From assembly GCA_031549495.1 (NCBI GenBank), contig JAVBPS010000041.1:9121-73120 (forward strand): a stretch of DNA of 64,000 nucleotides, in the 5' to 3' direction. Within the stretch, counting starts at the first letter, position 1, and every line of letters starts with the position of its first letter. This document shows, piece after piece, positions 30,401 to 46,354 of the stretch. This stretch comes from Rikenellaceae bacterium (lineage in GTDB: Bacteria > Bacteroidota > Bacteroidia > Bacteroidales > Rikenellaceae). The notes beneath the pieces were generated by a model. The model saw only the letters and a list, made by a program, of their open reading frames with translations, was not told the DNA's origin and made no database searches. The translations under genes were made by a program, and so were the position numbers.

Positions 30401-30950
30401 GCAGGGCAACCGGCAAACCACCACCAGCACGGCCAACATCCCCTTCGGGATCGTCGGGCAGGGATTGCCGAAAGTCTCCGGGGGCGTGTCGCTCAACTAC
30501 ACCTACGGCTCGTGGTCTCTGAGCGCGCTCTGCTCGTTCGCCTGGGGCCACCAGATCTACGACCGTCTGGGCGGGTCGGTGATCTCCACCGACGGCGGGA
30601 CGCAGTTCTCGGCCTCGGTCGACCAGCTCGACCGCTGGACGCCGGACAATCCCTACGCCTCCTCGCCGCTGAGGGTGAACAACAGCGCGACCGCCTCGCG
30701 CTACACCCGTTTCCTAAAGAACGGCGCCTACCTGAAGGTGCGCAACATCAAGCTGCAGTACGAGGTGCCGCAGAGCGTGCTCAAGGCCGTGAAGATCGCC
30801 TCGGCGGCGGTGTTCGTGCAGACCGAGAATCCGTTCATCTTCTCGCACATTCCGGGCTACGACCCCGAAATGTCAATGTCCGGCTACCGGTATACGGACC
30901 GTTATCCCACTCCCACCATCTTCACGGCGGGCCTTACCCTTAACTTCTGA
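27477..30950 (+). CDS. SusC/RagA-family TonB-dependent receptor with an N-terminal STN signalling domain (trans-envelope signalling type)
   Basis: ORF 27108..30950, but its first 123 codons overlap fecR in another frame. The ATG at 27477 gives MNEHDPNLRKRKAFRLPRAAVCLLGALLLGASLHAQ. STN-like TVTLSMQSTDLKSVIWEIERQSGIRFIYNAQDI...ALDEVMRGTGFGYDL, then CarboxypepD_reg, plug and barrel (C-terminus ...FTAGLTLNF). Confidence 0.93.
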   Translation: MNEHDPNLRKRKAFRLPRAAVCLLGALLLGASLHAQPTVTLSMQSTDLKSVIWEIERQSGIRFIYNAQDIGQVKIPAVSMAGKTVPQALDEVMRGTGFGYDLRDGIYVIRRGEPTPPPASPTHLTVSGIVTGAGSVLPGATVTVRGTTTGTVTDRDGRYTLSVPRSDTTTLVVNYIGMKTASVLVLNRTTLDVVLDEEAEQIETIVATGYRSIAADSYTGSAKVISSALIGTRAIGSVEEALRGLSPGTLVAASGQPGEQNEVRLRGVGSMNADNQPLYVVDGVVWDQINMSGNSNTPTNPLNALNPSDIANITELKDAASAALYGSRGANGVIVITTKSGLENEKTSFTLGLQTGFSMLNTYPELVDGRQFAELWTEGEMHDLIRRELADSEGKTSRTDLVKELQSLYADKDGYTYGRQNYNYNQWMKVAQGNFNALYAMPAGDGTYRRYDFFAADADKLPSTDWFEEISRLAPFIKANLSMQGGSRTMRYYASMEYFDQQGTIIGSQLKRYSARIKLSSESDKQLVNWGTNMYISSTLQSGPLAGGQNYNSPQYAAVMLPSVIAPKLEDGSYNFFFPNNILNTNHNPVASANENINEKPLTSITAQGWLQFNLLPWLKFRSTNTIYYTLVRRHAYYSREFGTGISTSGQLYERDSHNRKITSTNLFTVSKTWRGRHRLNLIAGGEIENQRNTYNEIQVSNFATDRKPSASMGSQMSNWNGGGYGYSLASLLSSADYSYRYRYFISGSYRMDASSRFGPGYRTGHFWSVSGAYKIASEPWFKPLLKTINYLRFRGSYGVNGTLPSQYYYWRNAFEGSAYMSVPGASQRYRPRPELTWEGNRIWNVGMDARFLDDRISLTVEYYDRKSKDLLQDVRVSMTSGYQTMLMNTSAGINNHGLEAELTGVPLRTPKQRLELSVNLATLKSTYYGLQTQELDNYSRQLMANGESVYSWYLRQWAGVDPSTGSVLYPYYDEQGNRQTTTSTANIPFGIVGQGLPKVSGGVSLNYTYGSWSLSALCSFAWGHQIYDRLGGSVISTDGGTQFSASVDQLDRWTPDNPYASSPLRVNNSATASRYTRFLKNGAYLKVRNIKLQYEVPQSVLKAVKIASAAVFVQTENPFIFSHIPGYDPEMSMSGYRYTDRYPTPTIFTAGLTLNF

Positions 30951-30955
30951 CGGCC

Positions 30956-32512
30956 ATGAAAAAGATTTCGATACTGCTCGCGGCACTGACCCTGACCCTC
31001 GGCCTGGGGGGATGCGCAGAGCTGCTCGACAAGGAGCCCTACGAAATGTACGAAGAGGATTTCGTGCTCACCACCCCCGAGGGCATGGACCTGTTGCTCA
31101 CAGGAGCCTACGACCTGGTCGCGGGCCAATCCTATTACGGCGCGCTGCTCTACCTCTACGAGGCGGCCAAGGGGCCCGACTTCTTCGTGCGCAACGTGGC
31201 CGGCGGCTTCTCGTTCTACACCGAGAACCGCTACAGCGAGTCCTCGACCACCAACGGCAACGCCCGCAACGCATGGGTGAACATCTACCTGGTGATCCGC
31301 AACACGACCCTGCTGATCGAAAACATCGACACGGTGAAGGGCGACGTCGAAGAGCTGCGCCGCATCAAGGGCGAAGCCTATGTGCTGCGCGGACTGGCCT
31401 ATTTCGACCTGATGCGCCTGTTCGCCTACCCGCCGGCGTTCTCCGTGCCGGGCGGATCGCGCTACGATGAGAAATTCCAATGGGGCGTGCCGATCATCCG
31501 CACCGTCGAGATGGGTTCCAACATCTACGACTACCGGGTGCGGCGCGAAACGGCCGAGACCACCTATAATTATATCATCGACCAGTTCGAGCGCGCGGTG
31601 CGCCTGCTCGAAGGGCGCACCATCGCCCAGGGCCACGCCAACGCCGCCGCAGCCGAAGCGCTGCTGCTGCGCGCTTACCTCTACCTCGAAAAGTGGGACA
31701 AGGTGATCGAGCTGGGCGAGGAGTGGCTCTCCAAATACGAGTCGCGCTACGCGATGATCCCCTGGGAGAGCTACCCGACCACCTACCACAAGCCGTTCAA
31801 CACCGAGAGCGTGTGGGAGCTCGGCTACATGACGGCCGACAACCTGGGGTCGAACTCGATCAACTACTGGGTGCGCCGGCCGACGTGGAACGAGCCCGGA
31901 TCGGAGCGCGACGGGACCGTCTCGCAGAACATGGGCTACTCGAAGCTGGGCCTCACCTGGGGCGGGACGAACTGCGGTTATAACTTCCTGATCAACTACG
32001 CCAACGACATCCGCCAGTACCTGATCTGCCAGATGGGCATCGAGAGCCATCCCGAATACCTCTCGGTGCGTAAATACGTGGGCGATCCCTACCACTTCGT
32101 GCACAACGTGCCGGTGGTGCGGCTGCCGGAGATCTACCTCAGCCTGGCCGAAGCCTACGCCAATCAAGGCGAGATGGGTACCGCGACCGACTACACCAGC
32201 AAAATATCGCAGCCGCGCCGCAAGTCGGCCGCGAGCATCACTTCGACCGGTAACGTGCTCAACGAGCGTCGGCGCGAATTCATCCTCGAAGGGCATACCT
32301 ACTGGGATTACTTCCGCACGGCGCGCAACCTGACCGGCCGGCAGATCATCGAGAGCATCGACGACAGCTCGATCTCCTTCGGAACCACCACGGGCGCGAG
32401 TTACCGCGCCGTCTACCCGATCCCCCTGGCCGAGATGAACGCCAACCCGGCCATCCGCGACCAGAAGAACCCCGGCTATGCCGACTGGGTCTACGCCATC
32501 GAAGAAGACTAA
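30956..32512 (+). CDS. SusD/RagB-family lipoprotein
   Basis: 518 aa. Lipobox LGLGGC, VLRGLAYFDLMRLFAYPP, RLPEIYLSLAEAYANQG. It lies 5 nt after susC. Confidence 0.92.
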   Translation: MKKISILLAALTLTLGLGGCAELLDKEPYEMYEEDFVLTTPEGMDLLLTGAYDLVAGQSYYGALLYLYEAAKGPDFFVRNVAGGFSFYTENRYSESSTTNGNARNAWVNIYLVIRNTTLLIENIDTVKGDVEELRRIKGEAYVLRGLAYFDLMRLFAYPPAFSVPGGSRYDEKFQWGVPIIRTVEMGSNIYDYRVRRETAETTYNYIIDQFERAVRLLEGRTIAQGHANAAAAEALLLRAYLYLEKWDKVIELGEEWLSKYESRYAMIPWESYPTTYHKPFNTESVWELGYMTADNLGSNSINYWVRRPTWNEPGSERDGTVSQNMGYSKLGLTWGGTNCGYNFLINYANDIRQYLICQMGIESHPEYLSVRKYVGDPYHFVHNVPVVRLPEIYLSLAEAYANQGEMGTATDYTSKISQPRRKSAASITSTGNVLNERRREFILEGHTYWDYFRTARNLTGRQIIESIDDSSISFGTTTGASYRAVYPIPLAEMNANPAIRDQKNPGYADWVYAIEED

Positions 32513-32530
32513 CAAGCAAAAACCACAGGA

Positions 32531-34348
32531 ATGAAAAAGAGAATATTGTGGGCCGCCACACTGCTGCTGGCCGCCGCCCTGACCGATTGCAAGGACGACG
32601 AGGGTGACTTCAACGATACGTTCGCCATCTCGTCCGACGCCGTCCAGTTCGACGGCAACACCCTCGCCTTCGGCCCCGACCGCCTGACGGTGGTGATCGA
32701 GGGGGCCACCGAGACCGCCACCGGCAAGTGGAACGCCATCTGTCCCACCGAGGACGTATGGTGCTCCTTCTCGCGCCGCGGGGGCGAGCTGGCGGTCACC
32801 GTCAGCCTGAACGACACCAATGAGCCGCGCTCGACATGGATCGAGTTTTCGCTCGGGGACAACACCCGCCGCATCGCCGTCAACCAGGAGTACCTGCGCA
32901 CCCTCTCCTTCCCCGGCGGGAACACGGCGACCGAGGGAGCCAACGCCCACGCGGTGTCGATCCCCCTGCAAACGAACGTCGCCGCGGCCAACCTCTCGGC
33001 GAGCGTCACCGATCCGGCCTCGTGCGACTGGATCACCAACCTGGCGGTCAGCGCGACGGCCGTCACGTTCAACCTGCTGCGCAACCCGTCGGCCAGTTCG
33101 ACCCGTCCCGCCACGATCACCGTCCAGGGCGAAGGCAAAACGGCCTCCGTGCGGGTCACCCAGAACGCCCTGAGCGGCTACCCCTACCAGATCGACCTCT
33201 CCGGGGCGGATTTCGCCGATTGCTACATCTACGAGATATGGGATCAGACGCACGACATGAAGATCGGCGAACTCTGCCTGGAATACCTGCATAAAAAGCC
33301 CGACGGGGCCGATAACCCGATCGTGCGCAAACAGGCCACGGTGGCCTATCCGATGAAATCGGGCAAGGTCGACCTGACGAACGGCCTGGTGGTCGACGAC
33401 GGCCATTTCGTGCGGTGGGCCGCCAACGTCACTTCGACCACCCCTCCGGCCGATATGCTCGGCTACGAAGAGGGCGAAACCGTGGCTGCGAAGCCCACGG
33501 TGATCTACCTCGACGAGGGCGCTGCGCGCATGACCACCGTCGACATCGAGGCCCTGCCCGGCGACCGCGTGATGGCCGTCCTGCGGCCCTACAAGCTGCG
33601 CGACCAGCGCTCCGGCACGGCCAATAACCAGGGCCAGCTCACCGAGGATTACTCGTACAAGGTGGTCAAGATCGGCACCCAGTACTGGATGGCCGAGAAC
33701 CTGCGCAGCTCGCGCTACGCCGACACGGGCGCCCCGATCCCGACCGACATCGGCACGGAATGGGCCAACGCCATGTCGCCCGGATGCGCCATCGCCACCC
33801 GGGTCGCAAGTACGCAGGCCAACTGGATCGACGCCAACGACCCCCTGGAGGCTGCCGTAACCGCACGCAATACGCACGGGTTGGTCTATAATTTCCATGC
33901 GCTCACACGGACCACCGCCGCGAAAGACGTGGAGATGCCCGAGGCCAGTATCGTGGACCGGCTCGCACCTGCGGGCTGGAGTGTCCCGGAGCGGGCGCAG
34001 TTCACCCAGATGTGTAACTACGTCTTCCAGGCCACCTCGTTGCCGGGAGCCGCCGATGAGCTTTGCTCCACCACCTACGCGACGGGTGAATGGGCCAATG
34101 CGAGCGGATTCGGCGCGACCGGCAACAACTCGCGGTCGAACTCGGGAACCGCTACGGGTTATAATCCCCATACGGGCTATATGGCGATAGACGCCTACAC
34201 GTTCCGTCCGCCTCCCGGGCAGTTGGGCATTGAGAACCAGCATGTCAGCACGATCTTCCGGATCCAGACCGACACCGACAACAAACCGGTCTGGGTCGCC
34301 AACCAGTCCTGCCAGCGCGCGTTCTACGTCCGCTGCCTGCGCGACTGA
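32531..34348 (+). CDS. Surface lipoprotein with BACON-like repeats and a C-terminal FISUMP (Fibrobacter succinogenes major paralogous) domain
   Basis: 605 aa. Lipobox ALTDC. BACON-like segments (WCSFSRRGGELAVTVSLNDTNEPRSTWIEFSLGD; CDWITNLAVSATAVTFNLLRNPSASSTRPATITVQG). FISUMP-like YKVVKIGTQYWMAENLRSSRYADTG...GLVYNFHA...GWSVPERAQF. Confidence 0.7.
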   Translation: MKKRILWAATLLLAAALTDCKDDEGDFNDTFAISSDAVQFDGNTLAFGPDRLTVVIEGATETATGKWNAICPTEDVWCSFSRRGGELAVTVSLNDTNEPRSTWIEFSLGDNTRRIAVNQEYLRTLSFPGGNTATEGANAHAVSIPLQTNVAAANLSASVTDPASCDWITNLAVSATAVTFNLLRNPSASSTRPATITVQGEGKTASVRVTQNALSGYPYQIDLSGADFADCYIYEIWDQTHDMKIGELCLEYLHKKPDGADNPIVRKQATVAYPMKSGKVDLTNGLVVDDGHFVRWAANVTSTTPPADMLGYEEGETVAAKPTVIYLDEGAARMTTVDIEALPGDRVMAVLRPYKLRDQRSGTANNQGQLTEDYSYKVVKIGTQYWMAENLRSSRYADTGAPIPTDIGTEWANAMSPGCAIATRVASTQANWIDANDPLEAAVTARNTHGLVYNFHALTRTTAAKDVEMPEASIVDRLAPAGWSVPERAQFTQMCNYVFQATSLPGAADELCSTTYATGEWANASGFGATGNNSRSNSGTATGYNPHTGYMAIDAYTFRPPPGQLGIENQHVSTIFRIQTDTDNKPVWVANQSCQRAFYVRCLRD

Positions 34349-34370
34349 CGATCGGCTTCTGCGATGAACC

Positions 34371-34397
34371 AGGCCGGGCGGCGATCCCGCCCGGCCT
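34371..34397 (+). terminator. Strong GC hairpin (11-bp stem AGGCCGGGCGG/CCGCCCGGCCT, loop CGATC) ending the susC-2 operon
   Basis: A perfect stem 23 nt after the stop at 34348, followed by TCCTTTG. Confidence 0.6.
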
Positions 34398-34480
34398 TCC
34401 TTTGACCGCAGGGGAAGGGGTGTTCGCGACCAAAAGCCCGCTCCGACAGCGATGCTTAAGCAAAACCCACGTTACCTTAT

Positions 34481-34954
34481 TAATGCGAATTAAAGGTTGG
34501 AAATAAACGTTCTTTTTGGCCGACGAGCACAGGGCCGGTATCGCCTGCGGGCGACCGTACTTTTTTGCTTGACCAAAAAAGTAGGCAAAAAAGTCAAGGC
34601 GCCGCGCTCCCGGCTTACCCGCTTACGGGTTTTCGGGGAAGTCGTGCGGAAATTCCGCTACGCACAGGCCACATCGCACGCCTCCGCGTTCCGCTCCGGC
34701 CTCCCGCTACAGTTTCCGCCCTTTGTCCCCCGAAAACCCTGGCGGGGCCCAAGCCTCCCGCTTATGGCGCCGGGCCAACGCGCTTTGGCCGCCGCGCAGC
34801 CCACCGCGCCCCCGCCTGCGGCTACCAACGGTCTTCTCGCGTCATGTCGAGCGTTAGTCGAGACATCTCAAACAGAACGGCCGAGCCCGTAGGGGCACCC
34901 CTCGCGGGTGCCCAAAGGAAACCAACGTTTATTTCCAACCCTTAATTCGCATTA
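34481..34954. mobile_element. 474-bp element bounded by 31-bp terminal inverted repeats and flanked by TTAT direct repeats: MITE-like insertion or invertible (phase-variable) segment
   Basis: TAATGCGAATTAAAGGTTGGAAATAAACGTT (34481..34511) versus the reverse complement of 34924..34954 (30/31 identical). TTAT sits at 34477..34480 and 34955..34958. The interior is GC-rich and highly self-complementary, with no credible ORF. Confidence 0.65.
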
Positions 34955-34961
34955 TTATCCT

Positions 34962-35789
34962 ATGAAACGGACATTGCTTGTCGTCATGGCGTTCGCATTC
35001 GCGCTCGCCGCATGCGCCGCCCCGCGCCCGCAGAAAGGGCACCTGGTCATTATCGGCGGCGGGACGATCACCGGGGAGATCCTCGGCAGGATGACCCGTT
35101 ACGCGGGCGGGCCGCGGCAGGCCCGCATCCTGATCGTCCCCTACGCCATGCGCGAGGCGGATTATCTGGAGCGCAACATCAAGGTCTTTCGCGACTACGG
35201 TTGCACGAGCGTGGATTACATCAACGTCGAGCCCGCCGAGGTCGACCGCCCGGAAAACCTCGCCAAACTCGACGGGGTGAACGTCGTCTTTTTCAGCGGC
35301 GGCCAGCAGCGCGAGCTGGCGGATGCCCTGCGCGGCACGCGGTTCCTGGAGCGCATACACGAACTCCACGCCGCGGGAGCCACGATCACCGGGACGAGCG
35401 CCGGGGCGGCCGTGATGAGTAAAGCGATGATCGCCGGCGGCCACCGCCAGGTTCCCCCGGGCAAGGATCCCGCCACATGGGGCGTGATCGCCCGCCAGGA
35501 CGTGAACCTCGTGGAAGGCTTCGGATTCATGCCCGAGGTCATCATCCACCAGCATTTCGTGGTCCGCAAACGGCTCACTTCGCTCTTTTCGGCCCTGCTG
35601 GACCGCCCGGACCTGTCCGGCGTGGGGATCGACGAATCGACCGCGATCGACGTTTCGCCCGACGGGACGTTCGAGGTGGTGGGCGACGGCACGGCGATGG
35701 TGATCCGGCCCCGCCACGGCCCTCTGCACCCGCCCCGGTTCGAGGTGGTGATCCTCTGGAAAAACGACACCTGTAAATACCGGCGATGA
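34962..35789 (+). CDS. Cyanophycinase-like peptidase (MEROPS S51), secreted lipoprotein
   Basis: ORF 34908..35789; the ATG at 34962 gives MKRTLLVVMAFAFALAACAAP (lipobox). GHLVIIGGG...ARILIVPYA...VNVVFFSGGQQ...ITGTSAGAAVMS (nucleophile Ser)...VIIHQHF are typical of cyanophycinase/S51. Confidence 0.85.
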   Translation: MKRTLLVVMAFAFALAACAAPRPQKGHLVIIGGGTITGEILGRMTRYAGGPRQARILIVPYAMREADYLERNIKVFRDYGCTSVDYINVEPAEVDRPENLAKLDGVNVVFFSGGQQRELADALRGTRFLERIHELHAAGATITGTSAGAAVMSKAMIAGGHRQVPPGKDPATWGVIARQDVNLVEGFGFMPEVIIHQHFVVRKRLTSLFSALLDRPDLSGVGIDESTAIDVSPDGTFEVVGDGTAMVIRPRHGPLHPPRFEVVILWKNDTCKYRR

Positions 35790-35914: not shown

Positions 35915-35942
35915 GAGGGTTATGACACCAGCCATAACCCTC
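35915..35942 (+). terminator. Intrinsic terminator candidate (10-bp stem GAGGGTTATG/CATAACCCTC followed by a T-rich tract)
   Basis: A perfect stem with an 8-nt loop, followed by TCGCTTTTTCATTTTCC, 126 nt after the cyanophycinase stop. Confidence 0.6.
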
Positions 35943-36149: not shown

Positions 36150-37415
36150 ATGCGAGAAAAAATGAACCGGAGGAAATTCCTGGCGGCCGCGGCCCTGGGG
36201 ACGGCCTCCCTGACCATCATCCCCCGCTCGGTGCTGGGCCGGGGCTTCATTCCCCCGAGCGACCAGTTGACCAAAGGGATCATCGGCACCGGCTCCATGG
36301 GCCGCGGCCATGTGAATTACGGCGGAACGCGGCTGGTGGCGGTATGCGACGTGGATCGCAAACACCTGGAACTGGGCAAAGCCCTGGCCGGGGAGCGGAT
36401 CGCCGCGTACCACGATTTCAGGGAGCTGATCGCGGACCCGAACGTCGACATCGTGCACATCGCCACCCCGCCCCATTGGCACGGGATCATGTCGGTCGAG
36501 GCGGCCAAAGCCGGGAAGGACATCTGGTGCGAAAAGCCGATGACCCGCACCATCGGCGAAGGCAAACGGGTCATGGAGGCGGTCAAACAGTACGGCCGGA
36601 TGTTCCGCCTGAACACCTGGTTCCGCTTCACGGACAACTTTTACGGCTTGGGCACCCCGGTCCGACCGCTCAAAAAACTGGTCGACAGCGGGATGCTGGG
36701 ATGGCCGCTGAAAGTGACCGTCAGCAAACACACCGGATTCGACTGGAAATTCTACTGGGTGGGCAAAGACTACCTGCCCCCGCAGCCCGTTCCCCAGGAG
36801 CTCGACTACGAGATGTGGCTGGGCCCGGCCCCCTACAAACCTTATAACTCCCATCGCGTGCACACCACGTTCCGCGGCTATTGGGATTACGACGGGGGCG
36901 GCCTGGGGGATATGGGGCAGCATTACCTCGACCCGGTCCAGTACCTGCTCGGCAAGGACGGCACCAGCCCGGTGAAGGTGGAGGTGGACGCGCCGCAGCA
37001 ACATCCCGAGGCGATCGGCACCTGGCGCTCGATCACCTATACTTACGACGACGGGTGCCAGATCGTGCTATGGGGCGGCGATTACGGGGAGAGCGACACA
37101 CCTTACATCGCGGGGCCCAACGGCAACGTGTACAACAATTTCATCTGCGACATCCCCGGCTGGCAGGATAAATTGGCGCAGTACCCCGAGCCCGCCCTCC
37201 AGCAGACGGATTTTATCGACAGCGTGCGTACCCGCAAAATATTCGCCCTCAATGAGCAGAACGGTTTCCGTTCGGCGACCCTGGTCAACATGGGCCTGGT
37301 CGCGCTGCGGCTGAACCGCACGCTCCATTTCGATCCCGACAAGCTCGAATTCATCAACGACGAAGCCGCCAACCGCCTGATCGACCAACCCATGCGGTCG
37401 CCGTGGCATATCTAA
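36150..37415 (+). CDS. Gfo/Idh/MocA-family NAD(P)-dependent oxidoreductase with a twin-arginine (TAT) signal; candidate glycoside 3-dehydrogenase/GH109-like
   Basis: 421 aa. MREKMNRRKFLAAAALGTASLTIIP (RRKFL TAT motif; an alternative ATG is at 36162). Rossmann GIIGTGSMGRGH, with LVAVCDVD...HIATPPHWHG typical of the family. Confidence 0.85.
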   Translation: MREKMNRRKFLAAAALGTASLTIIPRSVLGRGFIPPSDQLTKGIIGTGSMGRGHVNYGGTRLVAVCDVDRKHLELGKALAGERIAAYHDFRELIADPNVDIVHIATPPHWHGIMSVEAAKAGKDIWCEKPMTRTIGEGKRVMEAVKQYGRMFRLNTWFRFTDNFYGLGTPVRPLKKLVDSGMLGWPLKVTVSKHTGFDWKFYWVGKDYLPPQPVPQELDYEMWLGPAPYKPYNSHRVHTTFRGYWDYDGGGLGDMGQHYLDPVQYLLGKDGTSPVKVEVDAPQQHPEAIGTWRSITYTYDDGCQIVLWGGDYGESDTPYIAGPNGNVYNNFICDIPGWQDKLAQYPEPALQQTDFIDSVRTRKIFALNEQNGFRSATLVNMGLVALRLNRTLHFDPDKLEFINDEAANRLIDQPMRSPWHI

Positions 37416-37435
37416 CCCTCTGACCGATAAAAAAA

Positions 37436-40400
37436 ATGAAAAAGCTATATATACTGCTGGCCCTGCTGTCGATATCGTTCGGCCCGCTTCATGCCCAGTA
37501 TTCGGGAAACAGGACCCCGAAGACCATCGTGGCGGATGTCCTGGCGCAAATGCCCGCCCGCGACGCACAGCAATTCGAAACGCTGACCGGCGACCTGGCT
37601 TCGGCCGGGGAGGAAGGAGTCCTGCTGATGATCCAGATGATGGTCCCGCCGGGGGAAGGCAGCAACGCCGCCGTGGAATACGCGTTGAGCGGATTGTCCC
37701 GGTACGTGACCGCCGAGGGCCAGCAGGCCGCCCGCCTGGCGGTATCGAGCGCGTATGTGAAAGCGTTGGGCATGGTTCAGCAAAGGGAGACGAAAGCCTT
37801 CATCATCCGCCAGTTGGAAACGGCCGGCGGCGCGGAAGCGGTGCCGGGCCTCTCTGCTTACCTAAGCGACGAACAGTTGAGTGGCCCTGCGTCGCGCGCG
37901 CTGGCTTCCATCGGCAAACGCTCGCCGGAAGCGGCGGAAGCCCTTCTGGCCGCACTGGGCCGGGCCACGAGCGATAAATCGAAGGAAGACATTGTAACGG
38001 CCATTGCGGAAATCGGGCTGTCGCAGGCCGAGCCCGAGCTGACGCGGATGCTGCACGATGCCCGGGGCCAGGCGCTTGAAGGCGTCCTGCTGTACGCCTT
38101 GGGGCAATGCGGCAGCAAGGCCTCGCTGGGCGAATTGGCTGCGGCCGCACGCCGATCCGGCTACACGATGGAAAAAACGGGCGCCACAGCGTCATACATC
38201 GCCTTGATCCGCAGGGTCATGGAGCAGGGGGAGGTAAAAGAAGCGCAGAAAGCGGCGCAAGCGCTCGCAAAAGCCGCCGGACGTGCGCACCTGGAGCATC
38301 TGCGTGAAGCCGCCCTCGGACTGCAAATGGCCGCCGAACCGGCCGACGCGCTGGAAATGGTGCAAAAAGCGCTGAAGGACGGCAGCCGGGAGTACCGTTG
38401 CGCGGCCCTGAATTTCGCATCGGACTACGCCGGTGAACCGTTCTACGCGGGGCTGATCCAAACGTTCGGAAAAGCTCCGGCCGATACCCGGATCGACATC
38501 ATGAACTGGCTGGCGCAGCAGTGCACGGACAAACAGAAACAGGCGGCGATAAGCAGCTTCGGGATCGCTCCCTTCACCGCAGATCTGGCAAGCGCCGATT
38601 TCGCGCTTAAAAGCGCGGCGGCGGCGTTGATCGCCCGCATCGGGGGGACGGACGCCGCCGGGGCGCTGGCGGGGCTGCTGGCAAGCGGCGACCCGCAGAC
38701 GGTTTCACTGGCCGGGAGCTTGCTGAGCACCGTGCCGGGCGACATATCCGCTCCGGTGGCCGCGATCATCCCGTCGGCCGGAGATGCGGGCAAGACGGCG
38801 GCATTGAGGCTGCTCTCCAACCGGAAGGCCTCAGCCTATTTCCAGACGGTCATGGGCCAGATCGACGGCGGCTCGCCCGAGGTGAAGCAGGCGGCATATT
38901 CAGCGCTGAAGAACGTCGTCACCGCCGACAACCTGCCGGTGCTCTACGACCTGCTCGAAAACGCTGCTCCGCAGGACGTCGCGGCGCTGCAACAGGCGAT
39001 AGGCGCGGCCGTAAAAGGGATCGCCCCGGACAAACGGCTCGCCACGCTGACCGGGCAAATGGACGCGACCCCGAAAGAGAAGCAATACCTCTACTACCCT
39101 ATTCTGACCGCCACCGGCATCCCCGGCTCGCTTGAAATCGTAACGGATCGCTTTGCGAAAGAGTCCGGAACGGCCAAAGACGCGGCGTTCCAAGCCTTGC
39201 TGGATTGGCAGGGGCACCAGACCGCCGGGTTGCTGCTCAATATCTGCAAGGATCCTTCCGCTTCGCGTTATTTCGACCGGGCGCTCGCCAGGTATATAAC
39301 GCTCGCGTCCGATCCGGCGCTCACGGGCGAAAACCGCAGGCTGCTGCTGGCCAACGCGCTGGAAATCGCCAAAACCGACGGACAGAAGAACCTGATCCTG
39401 AAAAATCTCGGCGGCACGGATTCCTACCCCGCGCTGCTGCTCTCAGGCGGATACCTCGACCAACCGGCGCTCCGGCAGGCGGCCGCGGGGGCGGTCATGA
39501 ACATCGCCCTGAATAACAAGGAATTCACCGGGCCGCAAGTAAGGGCATTGCTGGAAAAAGTGATCGAGGTGCTCGACAACCCCGACGCCGGTTACCAGAA
39601 GGAAGCCATCCGCAAGCATCTGAACGAAATGCCGGAAGGCGAAGGATTCGTATCCATATTCAACGGGAAGGACCTTGCGGGATGGCAGGGGCTGGTGGAA
39701 AATCCGGTCAAGCGTTCAAAGATGACGAAAGCGGAGCTTGCCCGCAGGCAGGCCGAAGCCGACAAACAGGCTGCAGAACACTGGACGGCCGCGGCAGGCG
39801 TCCTCGTCTTCGACGGAAAAAAAGGAGGCGACAACCTCTGCACCGTCCATCCGTACGGCGATTTCGAGATGCTCGTAGACTGGCAGCTCGACCCGGCCGG
39901 GCCCGAGCCCGACGCGGGGATTTACCTGCGTGCATCGCCCCAGGTGCAGATATGGGACACGGCGCGCACCAATGTGGGCGCACAGGTCGGCTCCGGGGGG
40001 TTGTACAACAACCAGCAGCACCCCAGCGTGCCGCTGGCGCTGGCCGACAACCCGCTGGGCGAGTGGAACGCGTTTTACATCAAAATGACGGGCGACCGCG
40101 TCACGGTGAAGCTCAACGGGATCCTGGTCGTGGACAACGTGATCCTGGAGAACTACTGGGACCGCTCGAAGCCCATCTTCCCCCGGGAGCAGATCGAGCT
40201 CCAGGCGCACGGCAGCAAGGTTTACTACCGCAACATCTATATCAAAGAGCTGGCAAGCCCCGAGCCCTTCGAATTATCGGAACAGGAAAAGAAGGAGGGG
40301 TTCCGTATTCTTTTCGACGGGACCAACATGCACGACTGGACGGGAAACACGGTCGATTACCTCATCGACCAGGGTACGATCTCGCTCGACCCGAAGGGAC

Positions 40401-40879
40401 GCCACGGCGGCAACCTCTACACGAAGGATGAATTCTCCGATTTCATCTACCGCTTCGAGTTCCTGCTGACCCCGGCGGCCAACAACGGCGTGGGGATCCG
40501 CACCCCGATGGGTGTGGACGCGGCTTATCACGGCATGGAGATCCAGATCCTCGACCACGACCATCCCGTGTACAAAAACATCACGCCGTTGCAGGTGCAC
40601 GGCTCGGTCTACGGGATCATCGGCGCCGAAAGGGGCCATCTGCGGCCCGTAGGCGAATGGAACGAAGAGGAGATCATCGCCGACGGCGACCACATCAAGG
40701 TGACGCTGAACGGGGTGGTGATCCTGGACGGCAATATCCGCGAGGCTACTGTAAACGGCACTGCCGACGGGCAGGAGCACCCCGGACTGTTCAACAAAAC
40801 AGGACGTATCGGCTTTCTGGGCCACGGTTCCGCCGTCAAATTCCGCAACATCCGCATTAAAGAGATCGATAAAAAGTAG
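37436..40879 (+). CDS. Secreted 1147-aa protein: N-terminal HEAT/ARM-like repeat region (about 730 aa) fused to two DUF1080 (3-keto-disaccharide-hydrolase family) domains
   Basis: Signal peptide (GPLHAQ) and an alanine/leucine-rich helical repeat region. DUF1080 copy 1 is at about nt 39644..40252 (GFVSIFNGKDLAGWQG...YGDFEMLVDWQL...IELQAHGSKVYYRNIYIKEL). Copy 2 is at about nt 40298..40870 (GFRILFDGTNMHDWTG...FSDFIYRFEFLLTPAANNGVGIRTP...MEIQILD...GRIGFLGHGSAVKFRNIRIKEI). Confidence 0.8.
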   Translation: MKKLYILLALLSISFGPLHAQYSGNRTPKTIVADVLAQMPARDAQQFETLTGDLASAGEEGVLLMIQMMVPPGEGSNAAVEYALSGLSRYVTAEGQQAARLAVSSAYVKALGMVQQRETKAFIIRQLETAGGAEAVPGLSAYLSDEQLSGPASRALASIGKRSPEAAEALLAALGRATSDKSKEDIVTAIAEIGLSQAEPELTRMLHDARGQALEGVLLYALGQCGSKASLGELAAAARRSGYTMEKTGATASYIALIRRVMEQGEVKEAQKAAQALAKAAGRAHLEHLREAALGLQMAAEPADALEMVQKALKDGSREYRCAALNFASDYAGEPFYAGLIQTFGKAPADTRIDIMNWLAQQCTDKQKQAAISSFGIAPFTADLASADFALKSAAAALIARIGGTDAAGALAGLLASGDPQTVSLAGSLLSTVPGDISAPVAAIIPSAGDAGKTAALRLLSNRKASAYFQTVMGQIDGGSPEVKQAAYSALKNVVTADNLPVLYDLLENAAPQDVAALQQAIGAAVKGIAPDKRLATLTGQMDATPKEKQYLYYPILTATGIPGSLEIVTDRFAKESGTAKDAAFQALLDWQGHQTAGLLLNICKDPSASRYFDRALARYITLASDPALTGENRRLLLANALEIAKTDGQKNLILKNLGGTDSYPALLLSGGYLDQPALRQAAAGAVMNIALNNKEFTGPQVRALLEKVIEVLDNPDAGYQKEAIRKHLNEMPEGEGFVSIFNGKDLAGWQGLVENPVKRSKMTKAELARRQAEADKQAAEHWTAAAGVLVFDGKKGGDNLCTVHPYGDFEMLVDWQLDPAGPEPDAGIYLRASPQVQIWDTARTNVGAQVGSGGLYNNQQHPSVPLALADNPLGEWNAFYIKMTGDRVTVKLNGILVVDNVILENYWDRSKPIFPREQIELQAHGSKVYYRNIYIKELASPEPFELSEQEKKEGFRILFDGTNMHDWTGNTVDYLIDQGTISLDPKGRHGGNLYTKDEFSDFIYRFEFLLTPAANNGVGIRTPMGVDAAYHGMEIQILDHDHPVYKNITPLQVHGSVYGIIGAERGHLRPVGEWNEEEIIADGDHIKVTLNGVVILDGNIREATVNGTADGQEHPGLFNKTGRIGFLGHGSAVKFRNIRIKEIDKK

Positions 40880-40927
40880 GGTGGCTTATCCGGATGCGGC
40901 GGGATTCCTGCACTAATGGAAAACAGA

Positions 40928-40957
40928 GCGGCTTACTATTCAGTAAGCCGCTTTTTT
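40928..40957 (+). terminator. Canonical rho-independent terminator (10-bp stem GCGGCTTACT/AGTAAGCCGC, loop ATTC, T6)
   Basis: A perfect stem followed by TTTTTT, 49 nt after the stop at 40879. Confidence 0.85.
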
Positions 40958-41253: not shown

Positions 41254-42876
41254 ATGGGTTTGAGACAAATTTTCATATTCGTACTGTTGGTCTCGTGCCG
41301 CCCGTGCCTTTTCGCACAGGGCGGCGGGGTCGACTCCCTGCTCAAGGTGCTCGACCAGCAGATCGCCGGGCGCGAATCGTACCTCGACCAGAAACTCAAA
41401 CGCATCGACGCCCTGCGCAATAAACTGAATGCCGTCCCCGCCGGCGACCTCCGCCTGCAATTCAGCTACGTGAGCGAGATGACGGCCGAATACCGCGACG
41501 TGATCTACGACTCGGCGTTCGTCTACGTACATAAGATGAGCCGGCTGGCCCACACCCTCGGCGATGCGGAGATGATCGCCGACGCCCGCCTCGAAGCCTC
41601 TTCGCTCTTCCTGGGAGGCGGGGTCTTCACCCTGGCCGTGGACACCCTGCGCACCATGCGGCCCCCGGAGCTCGACACCTCGCTCAAAAAGCGCTACTAC
41701 ACCCTCTCCGCCCGCCTCTGGTACGACCTGGCCGGGTATATCGGCGACCAGTTTTACGCCCCGCTGCATGTGGCGCTCGGCAACCGTTACCAGGACAGCC
41801 TGATCATGCTCGAGACGCCCGGATCGGACGCCTACCGGATGGCCGTGGGCAAGAAACTCACCTACGAGCACCGCTACCGCGAGGCGATCGACACCCTGCT
41901 GCCCCTGCTCGACCATTGGGACACTTCGAACCGCCGTTTCCCCATCCTGGGCTCGACCCTTTCGTTCTGCTACCGTTCGCTGGACGAGGAGATGCAGGCC
42001 AAACAGATGCTGATCATGGCCGTCATATCGGACATCATCAACGTGAAGATGGAGTCGACCACCGCCATGCAGCTGGCCGAGATGTTTTACAGCGAGCGAA
42101 ACCTCGAACGGGCCCACCAATGCATCCAGTTGGCCCAGAAGAGCGCCGACTATTTCAACGCCCGCCACCGCAAGGTGCGCATCTCGAAGACCCTGCCGCT
42201 GATCGAGACCGAGCGGATGCTGCTCGAGCAGGAGAAGCGCCACCGCGTGCGCCTCTTCGCCACGGTCGTGGCCGTGTTCGCCGCCCTGGTGGTGCTCTTC
42301 CTGGCCATCATCTACAAGCAGTTGCAACGGATCAAGCGCTCGGAGCAGATCATCCGCCGCACGAACCGTTCGCTGGAGGAGACCAACCTCAAACTGCGCG
42401 AATCGAACACCATCAAGGACGAATATATCGTCGACTTCCTCGACGCCCAGGCCTCGTTCATCGACCGCACGGACGCCCACCTGAAGGTGATCCGCAAGAA
42501 AATGCGCGAAAAGAGCTACGACACGCTCATGCGCCTGCTGGACAGCGAATTGGTCGAGGAGGAGCGCCAGCAACTGTTCAAACGCTTCGATACCGTATTC
42601 CTGGGCCTGTTCCCGTCGTTCATCGAAGATTTCAACGCCCTGCTGGAACCCGACGGGCGGATCGTTCCGCGCAAGAACGAATTGCTCAACACGGAGTTGC
42701 GCATCTACGCCCTCAGGCGCCTGGGCATCAACGAACCCACGGCCGTGGCCAAATTCCTGAACTGCTCGCTCAACACAATATATGCGTACAAAACGCGTAT
42801 TAACAACAAGGCCCTCTCGCAGGACAAGCGCGAATTCGACCGGGCTATTATGAGTATAGGCATCAGGATCCAATAG
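41254..42876 (+). CDS. DUF6377-type putative transcriptional regulator (TPR-like sensor region, one TM helix, coiled coil, C-terminal HTH)
   Basis: 540 aa. N-terminal signal-like segment, helical repeats, TM (LFATVVAVFAALVVLFLAIIY), coiled coil (QRIKRSEQIIRRTNRSLEETNLKLRES) and C-terminal HTH-like ELRIYALRRLGINEPTAVAKFLNCSLNTIYAYKTRI. Confidence 0.7.
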   Translation: MGLRQIFIFVLLVSCRPCLFAQGGGVDSLLKVLDQQIAGRESYLDQKLKRIDALRNKLNAVPAGDLRLQFSYVSEMTAEYRDVIYDSAFVYVHKMSRLAHTLGDAEMIADARLEASSLFLGGGVFTLAVDTLRTMRPPELDTSLKKRYYTLSARLWYDLAGYIGDQFYAPLHVALGNRYQDSLIMLETPGSDAYRMAVGKKLTYEHRYREAIDTLLPLLDHWDTSNRRFPILGSTLSFCYRSLDEEMQAKQMLIMAVISDIINVKMESTTAMQLAEMFYSERNLERAHQCIQLAQKSADYFNARHRKVRISKTLPLIETERMLLEQEKRHRVRLFATVVAVFAALVVLFLAIIYKQLQRIKRSEQIIRRTNRSLEETNLKLRESNTIKDEYIVDFLDAQASFIDRTDAHLKVIRKKMREKSYDTLMRLLDSELVEEERQQLFKRFDTVFLGLFPSFIEDFNALLEPDGRIVPRKNELLNTELRIYALRRLGINEPTAVAKFLNCSLNTIYAYKTRINNKALSQDKREFDRAIMSIGIRIQ

Positions 42877-43210
42877 GACGCGCCGACCCTCGCCCCCCTT
42901 CCCTCTTAATGTACAAACGCCCGTAAGGGACAATATCGCGACAATATTTTGTGTCGCGAGAGACCCCTGTTTGGCGCTTATTATCAATGCATTAACTTTA
43001 ATTCGAGACTATATGTTTTTTGTATGCCGTCAGACGGGTCGAAAAATAAGCCAATTTTGTAATGCTCCCCGAAGAGGGGCGCCCGAACCTAAAAAAACTA
43101 ACCTTAATACCGATCCGACGACCTATGGCAAAACTCAACGCTGCGGCCTGCGCGCCGAGGGGGAGACGCGGTTTCCCTGATTGTAGAACCTTAAAACCCA
43201 AACACATATC

Positions 43211-46200
43211 ATGACAGACACTTCTCACAAACGGGGTCTGCTGCCGGGATTCTTCCCGATGGCGGGCAAGCTGTTGCTGCTCGTGCTCCTGACCGCGGCG
43301 TCGCTGCCGCTTCAGGCACAGACCGGAATGGTCCGCGGAACGGTCAGGGGACCGCGCGGCGAGGTGATCTCCGGGGTCACCGTTGTCATCAAAGGCACTA
43401 CCACAGGCACCACCACCGGCAGCGATGGCAAATACGCCGTCCAGGCCAACAAAGGCGCCACCCTCGTATTCTCGCACCTTACCTATGAAACGCTCGAACG
43501 CACCGTCACGGGTCCCACGCTCGACGTCTCGCTGATGGACGGCGCCACGCAAATGGAAGAGCTGGTGGTGATCGGCTACGGCACCCAGCGCAAAAGGGAC
43601 GTGACGGGGGCCATCACCTCCATCTCCGCTTCGGAGATCGAGCGCAAGATGCCCTCGACCGTTTTCGACGCCCTGCAGGGCCAGGCGGCCGGGGTGCAGA
43701 TCATCCAGGGCTCGGGCCAGCCCGGCGAACCGGCCTCGATCCAGATCCGCGGCGCCTCGACCTTCTCAAGCGAGGGGGTCGCACCTTTGTATATCGTGGA
43801 CGGCGCGCCGATGGACAACATCGAGGGGATCAACCCGAACGACATCGCCTCGCTGGAGGTGCTCAAGGACGCCGCCTCGACGGCCATCTACGGCTCGCGT
43901 TCGGCCAACGGCGTGATCATCATCACCACCAAGAGCGGCCAGAAAGGCAAGCCCGCCGTGGAGGTGAAATACCACCACGCCTGGAGCCAGCTCACGCACA
44001 AGGTGGCCCAGGCCAACCGCGGGGAGCGGCTTTACTACGACAACCTGCGCCGCGACTACTTCCTGGCGAATCCCGTGGGCGGCAACGCCAACGAGAGCAT
44101 CCAGATGATCCAGGACACGCTCAACGTCTTCTTCAACGTGGACAACGACTACCAGAAGCTGGCCTTCCAGACCGGTAAGACCGACCAAGTGGACGTGAGC
44201 GTGAGCGGCGCCGAGAACAAGATCAAGTACCTGGCCGCGACCAGCTACTACAACGAGACGGGGATCATCCCCAACACCGGCTTCAAGCGCTTCACCGCGC
44301 GGGTCAACGCCGGGTATACCCCCTCCAAGTTCCTGAGCATGGGCACCAACTTCTCGCTCGGCTATTCGCGCCGCAGCGGGATCGACGAGGCGGCGTTCCT
44401 CAACTCGATGCTCACGCGCCGTCCCTACTTCTCGCTCTGGTTCCCCGACGGCACGATGGTCGGGATATTCAACGGGCAGCGAAGCCCGCTGGCGCAAACC
44501 ACCTACACCACCGAGTTCACCGACTACTACCGCGCCAACTTCTTCCAGTTCTTCGAGCTGAACCTGGCCAAGGGGCTGAAATTCCGCACCAACCTCAACG
44601 CAGGCTACAACCAGAGCAAGCGCGTGCAGGCCATCCCCAGCATCATCACCGACGAATGGCAGAACTCCAACAGCGCCCAGGCCCAGAACTACCTGAACTG
44701 GAACTGGATGAGCGAGAACTTCCTCACCTACTCCAAAAAATTCTGCAACGTCCATAACTTTTCGGCCATGGCCGGTATGAGCGTGCAGCAATGGCAACTC
44801 GACACCGAGCGTTACCGCGGCATCAACTCCTCGACCGATTACCTGTGGACGATGAACGCCTACGCGGCCAACCTCGATCTGACCAACACCGGCACCTGGG
44901 TGAGCCGCCACTCCATGGCGTCGTTCTTCGCCCGGCTGACCTACGACTATAAGGGGCGCTACCTGCTGGCGGCCAACTTCCGCCGCGACGGTTCCTCGCG
45001 CTTCGCCGACGACAGCAAATGGGGTAACTTTCCCTCCGTGTCCGTGGGCTGGCGCTTCTCGGACGAGAGCTTTATGAAATGGGCCAAGCCTGCGCTCAAC
45101 GACGGTAAGATCCGCCTGAGCTACGGGGTGACGGGTAACGAGTCGATCGGCAACTACGACTACGTCTACTCCTACACCCCCTCGACCATCTACGACGGCG
45201 TGGGCGGCGTGGCCCCCACCCGCATCGGGCTGGACAACCTGCGCTGGGAGCAGACCGAGCAGTACAACGCGGGTCTCGACCTGAACATGTTCAACGGCCG
45301 CATGGTCCTCACGGCGGACTACTATTATAAGTACACCACGGGCCTGCTGGCCTACTACCAGCTGCCCAAGGAGTCGGGTTTCAAAGAGATGCGCACCAAC
45401 GTGGGTGAGGTCGAGAACCAGGGGGTCGAAATCACCCTCTCGGGCGACCTGGTCCGCACGCAGAATTGGCGCTGGAACGCCGCGTTCAACATCTCGCTGA
45501 ACAAGAACAAGATCGCCCGCCTTTCGGAAGGCACGCCCTACATGTCGGGCAACCTGTGGTGGATGGAAGAGGGCGGTAGCCTGGGCGACCTGTACGGTTA
45601 CCGCTCGCTGGGCGTGTTCCAGTACGACCAGTCGAACGCCTTCACGGACGACTGGCGCCAGCTGACCCCCGTATTCGCCGGCGGTGTCTTCCAGAACGCC
45701 TACCTGCTCGACGGACAGGCCTACACGGGCAACGTGAAGCAGAAGAAACTGCCCAACGGCAAAGCCTTCCGCGGCGGCGACTACAACTGGGCGGACATGA
45801 CCGGCGAGGGCGTGATCGACGACAACGACCGCACGGTCATCGGCAACGCCCTGCCCAAAGCATACGGCGGCCTGAGCACCCAGGTCTCGTACAAGAACAT
45901 CGCCCTGTATGTGGCGTTCTACTACTCGTTCGGCTCGGAAGTTTACAACGACGTGGCCCACAACCGCAACGCCTTCCAGTATACCGGCACCACCCCCGCC
46001 CCGGAGGTGATCTACGACATCTGGACAAAACAGGGCGACCAGACCACCTATCCGCGCCCCTACAACGACGAGTTCAACAACGCGCGTTACGCCAACTCGT
46101 TCTACGTCGAGGACGGATCGTTCATCCGCCTGCAGAACGTGCGCCTGACCTACACGCTGCCCGAGAAGTTCACCAACAAATTCAAGGTCAAGCAGCTGGG

Positions 46201-46354
46201 TGTGTACGCCTACGTCAACAACGCCCTCACCTGGACCAACTACACGGGTTACGACCCCGAATTCTCGACATCCGACCCCATCCAGGTGGGCAAGGACACC
46301 AACCGCTACCCCAAGAAACGCGAGTTCGGACTGGGGTTGAACGTTAACTTCTAA
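43211..46354 (+). CDS. SusC/RagA-family TonB-dependent receptor (no STN domain)
   Basis: 1047 aa (alternative start MAGKLLLL at 43259). CarboxypepD_reg (VRGTVRGPRGEVISGVTVVIKGTTTGTTTGSDGKY), plug (EELVVIGYGTQRKRDVTGA, IQIRGASTF...PLYIVDG) and C-terminus ...FGLGLNVNF. Confidence 0.95.
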   Translation: MTDTSHKRGLLPGFFPMAGKLLLLVLLTAASLPLQAQTGMVRGTVRGPRGEVISGVTVVIKGTTTGTTTGSDGKYAVQANKGATLVFSHLTYETLERTVTGPTLDVSLMDGATQMEELVVIGYGTQRKRDVTGAITSISASEIERKMPSTVFDALQGQAAGVQIIQGSGQPGEPASIQIRGASTFSSEGVAPLYIVDGAPMDNIEGINPNDIASLEVLKDAASTAIYGSRSANGVIIITTKSGQKGKPAVEVKYHHAWSQLTHKVAQANRGERLYYDNLRRDYFLANPVGGNANESIQMIQDTLNVFFNVDNDYQKLAFQTGKTDQVDVSVSGAENKIKYLAATSYYNETGIIPNTGFKRFTARVNAGYTPSKFLSMGTNFSLGYSRRSGIDEAAFLNSMLTRRPYFSLWFPDGTMVGIFNGQRSPLAQTTYTTEFTDYYRANFFQFFELNLAKGLKFRTNLNAGYNQSKRVQAIPSIITDEWQNSNSAQAQNYLNWNWMSENFLTYSKKFCNVHNFSAMAGMSVQQWQLDTERYRGINSSTDYLWTMNAYAANLDLTNTGTWVSRHSMASFFARLTYDYKGRYLLAANFRRDGSSRFADDSKWGNFPSVSVGWRFSDESFMKWAKPALNDGKIRLSYGVTGNESIGNYDYVYSYTPSTIYDGVGGVAPTRIGLDNLRWEQTEQYNAGLDLNMFNGRMVLTADYYYKYTTGLLAYYQLPKESGFKEMRTNVGEVENQGVEITLSGDLVRTQNWRWNAAFNISLNKNKIARLSEGTPYMSGNLWWMEEGGSLGDLYGYRSLGVFQYDQSNAFTDDWRQLTPVFAGGVFQNAYLLDGQAYTGNVKQKKLPNGKAFRGGDYNWADMTGEGVIDDNDRTVIGNALPKAYGGLSTQVSYKNIALYVAFYYSFGSEVYNDVAHNRNAFQYTGTTPAPEVIYDIWTKQGDQTTYPRPYNDEFNNARYANSFYVEDGSFIRLQNVRLTYTLPEKFTNKFKVKQLGVYAYVNNALTWTNYTGYDPEFSTSDPIQVGKDTNRYPKKREFGLGLNVNF

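Follow-up and report, generated by a model that had tools for sequence, protein, structure and literature searches.

The window analysed here, a 64-kb stretch of a Rikenellaceae bacterium contig (JAVBPS010000041.1) with a G+C content of about 62%, carries a string of polysaccharide-utilisation loci (PULs) of the Bacteroidota, between two of which lie two adjacent genes on the + strand. The first encodes a 421-amino-acid (aa) oxidoreductase of the Gfo/Idh/MocA family, GFO_IDH_MocA_C2 subtype (nucleotides (nt) 36150..37415), and the second a 1147-aa protein composed of a HEAT solenoid and two DUF1080 domains, designated D1 and D2 (nt 37436..40879). With moderate confidence, the pair is proposed to be a self-contained periplasmic module for non-hydrolytic, oxidation-assisted glycoside cleavage. 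This reading is put forward because the pairing is obligate (82 of 83 loci) and was kept in distant variants as well as in a reciprocal check (2 of 3); because the EKP motif, the D-x3-H pair and the twin-arginine translocation (TAT) signal of the oxidoreductase are invariant and its nearest solved structures are sugar C3-dehydrogenases; because the DUF1080 folds match those of known lyase/hydratases, with invariant channel positions; because genes of the 3-keto-glycoside pathway type adjoin the pair in Dysgonomonas, Pedobacter and a metagenomic locus (L169); and because the mechanism of the AL and BT1-3 enzymes, including a tightly bound cofactor, has been published. The family is uncharacterised but very widespread, and it is a new architecture of a recently described glycoside-cleaving system, not a categorically new one.

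It was not until 2021-2024 that the cleavage of glycosides by successive oxidation, elimination, hydration and reduction was elucidated, and then for a single operon type. BT2157 degrades 3-keto-trehalose, and growth on several disaccharides requires BT2157-BT2160 (Liu et al. 2021, PMC8121099). In the AL and BT clusters, oxidation at C3 is carried out by a TAT-exported Gfo/Idh/MocA enzyme that retains its cofactor, a TIM-barrel protein is a 3-keto-beta-glucoside 1,2-lyase, and the DUF1080 protein is a 3-keto-alpha-glucoside 1,2-lyase as well as a 2-hydroxy-3-keto-glucal hydratase, explicitly no hydrolase; the 3-keto sugar can re-oxidise the dehydrogenase (bioRxiv 10.1101/2024.03.25.586180). 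The original prediction for these two genes, made from the sequence, had named DUF1080 as a 3-keto-disaccharide hydrolase, which does not agree with these published relatives, and had regarded the architecture of the large protein as unusual, whereas it is common (see below). Given these two corrections, its idea of oxidation followed by cleavage is reasonable, and by analogy the pair is proposed to be a fused, pared-down version of the BT2156-BT2159 / AL1-AL4 pathway.

Distribution and conservation of the gene pair

Through the large protein, 83 loci distributed among Bacteroidales, Sphingobacteriales, Cytophagales and Chitinophagales were identified, and in 82 of them tblastn located the oxidoreductase gene immediately upstream on the same strand. 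In the single exception, the contig ended 296 nt upstream, and a partial match to the oxidoreductase was still present there. No third conserved gene was detected by clustering of the open reading frames (ORFs) in the flanks or by Pfam statistics on 125 immediate neighbours; flank clustering placed SusC-like genes in 19 loci and SusD-like genes in 17. Four distant members of the large-protein family (937, 1139, 1079 and 1090 aa; 27% to 37% identity in the HEAT part) all had a PF19051 oxidoreductase directly upstream, and the partner was kept even in a distant variant with one DUF1080 domain. Reciprocally, two of three oxidoreductase orthologs looked up, those of Saccharicrinis and Paludibacter, had a HEAT-DUF1080 gene downstream. 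Since the pairing is kept across orders and in distant variants and the context is not conserved, the pair is an ancient unit of two genes that is autonomous and moves from one genomic context to another. The gene-neighbourhood check proposed earlier for the HEAT-DUF1080x2 architecture thus gave a conserved pair with non-conserved flanks, and the claim that the two genes form a self-contained functional unit stands.

Among the scored candidates, 255 clusters with E ≤ 1e-10 make up the family of the large protein, which is uniform, with lengths of about 1140 to 1155 aa, and carries no annotation beyond "DUF1080 domain-containing", "HEAT repeat protein" or "family 16 glycoside hydrolase". One 90%-identity cluster comprised 3284 sequences from public human-gut assemblies. 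In a scan of one genome per species, relatives were found in at least 588 species genomes, and it is on this point that the view of the architecture as unusual fails. The best 80 of these at least 588 relatives were full-length and shared 43% to 60% identity with the window copy; genera among these 80 include Dysgonomonas, Parabacteroides (including P. distasonis and P. goldsteinii), Tannerella, Proteiniphilum, Pedobacter, Pontibacter, Dyadobacter and Chitinophaga. With the HEAT part alone as the query, an exhaustive phmmer run returned 1406 representatives at E ≤ 1e-10, the lengths of which fell into groups near those expected for HEAT plus two DUF1080 domains, HEAT plus one DUF1080 domain, and HEAT only or truncated forms. 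Single-DUF1080 variants (P0131, P0135, P0153 and others) of both the HEAT+D2 and the HEAT+D1 type, each about 920 to 950 aa, seem to exist; among the single-domain variants, the HEAT+D2 form (P0135, L164) alone was confirmed as a complete gene.

The oxidoreductase

The N-terminus of the oxidoreductase carries a TAT export signal, MREKMNRRKFLAAAALGTASLTIIPRSVLG (nt 36150..36239, + strand), with the motif NRRKFL; it was recognised by TIGR01409 with 17.1 bits (cut-off, 16.7), and residues R7, R8 and F10 were invariant in 70 orthologs from the four orders. This is followed by a Rossmann NAD(P)-binding domain containing the EKP motif with its catalytic Lys (aa 43-154, nt 36276..36611; PF01408, 70.8 bits versus a gathering cut-off of 24) and by a C-terminal substrate/dimerisation domain (aa 167-421, nt 36648..37412; PF19051, 468 bits, E 9.5e-141). 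These results agree with the earlier description of a TAT-exported Gfo/Idh/MocA protein, export being predicted from the invariant RRKFL motif. In the 70 orthologs, 156 of the 421 residues were invariant, including E128-K129-P130, D254 and H258. The last two lie in the motif LGDMGQH, aligned to LGDMACH in AL3, and the catalytic D254-x3-H258 pair corresponds to Asp248 and His252 of that enzyme.

In an alignment with BT2158 that covers aa 6-403, including the TAT signal and the following segment, the oxidoreductase shared 27% identity (E 9e-34), and the N-termini of the two proteins are laid out alike. Its best sequence matches in the PDB were 8tdf and 8tdh. Searching Foldseek with the AlphaFold model, which had a mean predicted local distance difference test (pLDDT) score of 79.4, gave as the top match the Alistipes glucoside-3-dehydrogenase AL3 (8tdf, 8tdh) with a template-modelling score (TMq) of 0.72; the next matches, with TMq ≤ 0.58, were DgpA, a glucuronide-3-dehydrogenase, WlbA and levoglucosan dehydrogenase, all of them sugar C3-dehydrogenases. 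The predicted likeness to glycoside 3-dehydrogenases was thus upheld, and the oxidoreductase is a distant, shorter paralog of BT2158 and AL3. GH109, the other affiliation suggested earlier, was rejected, since the C-terminal domain PF21252 of that family was not found in the oxidoreductase by Pfam search.

The HEAT-DUF1080 protein

The large protein begins with a Sec-type signal peptide, MKKLYILLALLSISFGPLHA (aa 1-20, nt 37436..37495, + strand), recognised from the sequence and from ortholog N-termini and predicted to be cut before Gln21. In an alignment of 55 sequences, A20 was nearly invariant and Q21 invariant, the latter also in 73 orthologs, and a lipobox Cys is absent from the signal peptide of the window copy. 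An AlphaFold model built on 55 homologs (mean pLDDT 87.7, mostly > 90 in the solenoid) showed helices from aa 28 to 731, followed by beta-jelly-roll domains at aa 750-938 and 957-1143. The helical part (nt 37517..39628, + strand) is an alpha-solenoid of about 44 helices with HEAT-like repeats, as judged by DSSP, Foldseek and a HEAT_2 match of 46.7 bits (cut-off, 27.7). The helical repeat region described earlier is therefore present, as a solenoid of about 700 aa, and the architecture assigned to a "giant" protein is correct, although this word is generous for 1147 aa. With a mean identity to orthologs of 40%, the HEAT part is the least conserved region of the protein. Foldseek matched it to CAND1, SF3B1 and importin-beta, a likeness in overall alpha-solenoid shape that is generic (10% to 14% identity, root-mean-square deviation of about 20 to 30 Å) and justifies no functional inference. 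The solenoid may serve as a scaffold or docking platform.

PF06439 matched the large protein in two stretches with 267.8 bits (cut-off, 26.8). The two tandem DUF1080 domains lie where they had been placed, D1 at nt 39644..40252 (aa 737-939) and D2 at nt 40298..40870 (aa 955-1145), both on the + strand, in accordance with the best Pfam stretch (aa 955-1142) and with the AlphaFold domains. The jelly roll of D1 carries a helical insert at aa 757-782 and a Gly-rich loop, VGAQVGSGGLYNN; D2 is the copy more like BT2157 (25% identity, E 1e-11). Foldseek matches with probability 1.0 were AL2 (8v31), BT2/BT2157 (8tda, 3osd), the 3-keto-glycoside eliminase/hydratase entries 8rr2 and 9fbe, BT3469 and several structural-genomics DUF1080 proteins; by fold and by Pfam, both domains are thus DUF1080-like, as claimed. 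No NCBIfam model matched D1, D2 or even BT2157. The best match of the whole large-protein model (E 1.3e-17) was BT3469 (PDB 4jqt), a two-domain DUF1080-containing protein whose C-terminal half aligns with D2 but which has 431 aa and no HEAT region. Stand-alone DUF1080 proteins, for which about 250 aa had been given, were found to range from 200 to 290 aa; BT2157, counted with its signal peptide, has 290 aa. The identity between D1 and D2 is only 27%, therefore the duplication is old and both copies have been maintained. Identity to orthologs was about 69% for D1 and 68% for D2 versus the 40% of the HEAT part, which indicates that both domains are under strong constraint.

For comparison, the BT2156-BT2159 locus was taken from a gut metagenome, and its 290-aa BT2157 copy has the channel residues E103, N134, E164, Q166, Y190, K245, Q273 and H275 at the published numbers. 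An L-INS-i alignment of BT2157 with 55 D1 and 55 D2 sequences equated N134 with D826 in D1 and N1016 in D2, E164 with Q836 and E1035, Q166 with Q838 and Q1037, Y190 with Y857 and Y1059, Q273 with Q923 and L1128, and H275 with H925 and H1130, respectively; for E103 and K245, the loop is absent from both domains. D2 thus retains five of the eight residues (N, E, Q, Y and H) and D1 four (Q, Y, Q and H), and the six aligned positions of each domain, substituted ones included, were invariant in 73 orthologs from the four orders. The check proposed earlier, on whether both copies retain the conserved catalytic residues, thus showed partial retention, as read from an alignment at 25% to 27% identity.

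The loop VGAQVGSGGLYNN (aa 847-859, nt 39974..40012), with the core VGSGGLYNN, is invariant and, within D1, forms the most conserved motif of the family. It overlaps aa 845-854, the sole internal segment with pLDDT < 50, and judging from the model it may be a mobile active-site lid.

Genes adjoining the pair in other genomes

In Dysgonomonas sp. ZJ279 (L010, 2052..5429), a complete cluster similar to BT2158, BT2157 and BT2156 (69%, 71% and 64% identity, respectively) lies directly upstream of the pair; the classical and the fused system adjoin here in one genome. In seven Pedobacter loci, the pair is followed directly by a gene similar to BT2158 (456 bits) and a further Gfo/Idh/MocA gene. TIM-barrel genes of the xylose-isomerase-like type account for 7 of the 125 immediate neighbours, which places them among the commonest. 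In a locus from JGI metagenome 3300009105 (L169, 1..15273), the distant 1090-aa variant is surrounded by a TIM-barrel gene (AP_endonuc_2), two stand-alone DUF1080 genes, five further Gfo/Idh/MocA genes, an MFS transporter gene and a gene for a 627-aa protein with faint multihaem-cytochrome matches, which may point to an outlet for electrons in that lineage. A GH109-like gene (PF21252) adjoins the pair as a separate gene in Parabacteroides loci. This GH109-like gene and other neighbours, namely SusC/SusD, sulfatase, GH43, GH3 and GH97 genes, point to glycan catabolism but to no single substrate.

In a vesicle proteome of Tannerella forsythia, the one source of expression data found, a DUF1080 protein of 1158 aa and a Gfo/Idh/MocA protein of 418 aa are listed, each as "periplasmic" (PMC10682907); these entries match the pair by size alone. 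Literature searches on the HEAT+DUF1080 architecture, on "eliminase/hydratase" and on 3-keto-glucal returned nothing specific.

Proposed mechanism

As in the pair, a TAT-exported Gfo/Idh/MocA dehydrogenase and a DUF1080 protein are brought together in the periplasm by the BT2156-BT2159 / AL1-AL4 systems, and a SusR-like DUF6377 regulator lies next door in the window, as AL5 and BT2160 do there. In contrast to those systems, the pair includes neither a TIM-barrel beta-lyase (BT2156) nor a cytoplasmic reductase (BT2159), and relative to BT2157 its DUF1080 domain is duplicated, diverged and fused to a 700-aa HEAT solenoid; its oxidoreductase is 70 aa shorter than BT2158, of the PF19051 subtype and different in its sugar-contact residues. 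Neither BT2156 nor BT2159 gave a tblastn match in the 64-kb window, which agrees with the earlier statement that no partner with a xylose-isomerase fold is present.

By analogy, the oxidoreductase would be exported folded via the TAT pathway with its nicotinamide cofactor bound, and would oxidise a sugar hydroxyl, most probably the C3-OH, to a ketone. A 1,2-elimination at one DUF1080 domain would then release the aglycone or the glycan that departs, and the resulting 2-hydroxy-3-keto-glycal would be hydrated by this domain or by the second one. Finally, the reduced oxidoreductase would pass its hydride back to the 3-keto sugar set free. Overall, this would amount to a redox-neutral "hydrolysis" with no need for soluble periplasmic nicotinamide adenine dinucleotide (NAD). 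The two diverged DUF1080 copies could replace the missing TIM-barrel lyase by sharing the alpha and beta work, or could split the lyase and hydratase roles, and the HEAT solenoid would hold the parts, or the substrate, together. Domain identities, export signals, folds, the partial retention and invariance of channel residues and the conservation of the pair throughout the phylum are shown by the data; oxidation at C3, elimination and hydration by D1 and D2, the redox-neutral cycle, any physical complex and the nature of the substrate are inferred. A comparable cycle is found in Zymomonas glucose-fructose oxidoreductase (GFOR), likewise a TAT-exported Gfo/Idh/MocA enzyme with a non-dissociating cofactor and a redox-neutral periplasmic ping-pong cycle; it differs in acting on free monosaccharides at C1 and in having no DUF1080 partner, and it is a much weaker match to the oxidoreductase (TM 0.52) than AL3.

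A bolder extension, which is possible but doubtful, is that docking of the oxidoreductase on the HEAT solenoid yields a stable holoenzyme in the periplasm, in which three active sites, that of the dehydrogenase and those of the two diverged DUF1080 domains, would hand on the reactive 3-keto and glycal intermediates. Such a two-polypeptide assembly would be a cofactor-recycling, anomer-independent "non-Koshland glycosidase" and a standard part of the Bacteroidota, acting on a substrate common to members from the gut, the mouth, the termite gut and soil. Instead of one dietary polymer, this substrate could be a glycan that is widespread or self-derived.

If active on glycosides, the pair would represent a second, much more compact and much more widely conserved form of the oxidise-eliminate-hydrate-reduce route, and a hidden glycan-cleaving capacity missed by CAZy-based annotation, in hosts that include common human gut Parabacteroides. 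It would also offer a natural system in which to ask how two DUF1080 domains share lyase and hydratase work, and would provide the first function for a periplasmic bacterial HEAT solenoid. If inactive on glycosides, the strict pairing and the unusually high conservation of the oxidoreductase would still indicate an unrecognised, conserved periplasmic function.

Evidence against the proposed module

Several observations weigh against a module for glycoside cleavage. For the oxidoreductase, the BT2158 equivalog model NF058561 gave 138 bits, over aa 6-299 only, versus a cut-off of 750, whereas BT2158 itself scored 870.7 bits and the neighbouring Pedobacter paralog 456 bits, and equivalog status was therefore rejected. 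In the alignment with AL3, the sugar-binding Arg192 is replaced by Trp and Trp195 by Tyr, and the equivalent of Gln161 falls in a gapped, ambiguous stretch. Because Arg192 and Trp195 are replaced, the substrate of the oxidoreductase, and conceivably also the position oxidised, may differ from those of AL3.

In the large protein, neither D1 nor D2 has all eight channel residues of BT2157, the E103 and K245 loops being gone in both; moreover, Gln273 is replaced by Leu in D2, and Glu164 by Gln in D1. These assignments come from sequence alignment at the low identity given above. Gln273 of BT2 contacts O4 and Lys245 contacts O6 of glucose (bioRxiv 10.1101/2024.03.25.586180), while the channel His of BT2157 contacts O2. 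The changed or missing O4- and O6-contacting residues suggest that the sugar specificity of D1 and D2 differs from that of BT2157.

A further point is the 81%-identity oxidoreductase of a Cytophagaceae metagenome-assembled genome (L172, 3200..4456), which has no HEAT-DUF1080 neighbour. We know of no role for a periplasmic 700-aa HEAT solenoid in chemistry of this kind, and a literature search found no biochemical or genetic data for any member of the HEAT-DUF1080 family.

Alternative explanations

Enzymes of GH4 and GH109 use a single-active-site mechanism. It is conceivable, but unlikely, that the oxidoreductase too runs oxidation, elimination, addition and reduction in one site, as these enzymes and NAD-dependent sulfoquinovosidases do, with the large protein non-catalytic, its DUF1080 domains lectin-like and its HEAT part a presenting or anchoring scaffold. 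The concanavalin/GH16-like jelly-roll fold of the DUF1080 domains would suit such a lectin-like role, and the incomplete set of BT2157 residues in both domains would be explained. The oxidoreductase is also far more conserved than its partner (64% to 84% versus 43% to 60% identity in the 83 loci by tblastn), and in Parabacteroides it is a GH109-like gene that adjoins the pair. However, no part of the large protein is better conserved than D1 and D2, and the residues invariant in these domains are those that line the catalytic channel of BT2157, including the O2-contacting His. GH109 and GH4 resemble the oxidoreductase in the periplasmic, TAT-signal-bearing Gfo/Idh/MocA fold, the bound NAD and the oxidation-elimination logic, but they act without a partner, whereas the oxidoreductase is nearly always partnered and lacks PF21252; its nearest structures are dehydrogenases that need separate lyases.

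Alternatively, the pair would cleave no glycoside if it served in the periplasmic salvage or detoxification of free 3-keto sugars, glycals and anhydro-sugars, the DUF1080 domains being only hydratases or isomerases and the oxidoreductase a reductase. AL2 and BT2 are efficient 2-hydroxy-3-keto-glucal hydratases, the BT2 residues that bind O4 and O6 are changed or missing, and the pair often lies outside any PUL and occurs in very different niches, all of which would fit salvage. This explanation is nevertheless improbable, as many loci place the pair in or beside SusC/SusD loci with sulfatases and glycoside hydrolases, and two distinct, individually conserved DUF1080 domains exceed the needs of a single hydration step.

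In a third explanation, one or both DUF1080 domains would be GH16-like endo-glycanases, so that hydrolysis comes first and oxidation of the oligosaccharides by the oxidoreductase second. The long solenoid could bind a polymer, and THTE_1561, a single-domain DUF1080 xanthanase/lichenase, is cited as characterised (PMC9007349). This order of events is highly unlikely: the GH16 catalytic motif is absent from DUF1080 domains of the BT2 type (bioRxiv 10.1101/2024.03.25.586180), the residues kept in the channels of D1 and D2 match those of the lyase/hydratases, and the strictness with which a C3-dehydrogenase-like enzyme is paired speaks for chemistry dependent on that enzyme. Fortuitous adjacency of two functionally unrelated genes, for which the one oxidoreductase ortholog without a HEAT-DUF1080 neighbour could be cited, is effectively refuted by synteny, since order, strand and the short gap are kept in all but one of the 83 loci, across four orders and also in distant variants, whereas the flanks are not conserved.

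Genomic setting of the pair

Both ORFs were confirmed from the ORF list and translations at exactly the coordinates first reported, with a gap of 20 nt, and they are the only two + strand genes between two terminator-like hairpins, by which the pair had been said to be bracketed. The hairpin at nt 35915..35942, with a 10- to 12-bp stem and a T-rich tail, can be read on both strands; it marks the end of the upstream PUL operon, of which Peptidase_S51 is the last gene, as well as the upstream border of the pair. The other, at nt 40927..40952, starts 48 nt 3' of the stop codon of the HEAT-DUF1080 gene and resembles an intrinsic terminator on the + strand (11-bp stem, 4-nt loop, TTTTT); the terminator scan gave its - strand form only, and the + strand form was read from the sequence directly.

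Downstream of this hairpin, a gene at nt 41254..42876 (+ strand) encodes a SusR-like regulator (DUF6377 / SusR_C, TPR_SusR; PF19904, 238.6 bits), a member of the family to which AL5 and BT2160 of the known pathway also belong. No homolog of this protein was found by tblastn in the other loci at E ≤ 1e-8 and ≥ 50% coverage, and it is treated as the regulator of the downstream PUL; it more probably serves the SusC/SusD operon downstream of it than the pair. In the Cytophagaceae locus mentioned above, a tRNA methyltransferase gene follows the oxidoreductase gene, and a TPR/SusR_C-like gene with a weak SusR_C match lies upstream.

The downstream PUL (nt 41254..59266), headed by the SusR-like regulator, comprises genes for SusC (43211..46354), SusD (46357..47820), an ORF without a Pfam match (48452..49996), a weak GH99/GH71-like protein (50067..51839), GH31 (51820..54201), GH2 with malectin (54203..56872), a second ORF without a Pfam match (56746..58416) and a SASA esterase (58382..59266). 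The upstream PUL (nt 26284..35789) encodes an anti-sigma FecR protein (26284..27444), a SusC protein with an STN domain (ending at 30950), SusD (30956..32512), a protein with BACON and Fib_succ_major domains (32531..34348) and Peptidase_S51 (34908..35789), the last being unusual for a PUL. A third locus (nt 1597..25175) encodes a hybrid two-component regulator (1597..5607), SusC/SusD (6095..11047), a sulfatase (11049..12404), a GH36-like Raffinose_syn protein (12401..14563), a GH42-like protein (15681..16781), a BD-FAE esterase (16778..17677), a BACON/DUF5689 protein (17698..19590), GH30 (20646..22073) and, on the minus strand, an S9-type esterase (24105..25175).

Long antisense ORFs overlap SusC/SusD genes at nt 7256..11248 (- strand, 1330 aa) and 30902..34243 (- strand, 1113 aa); these are shadow ORFs of a genome with 62% G+C, not genes. 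Similar antisense shadow ORFs within the pair look "conserved" across the loci only because the sense genes are.

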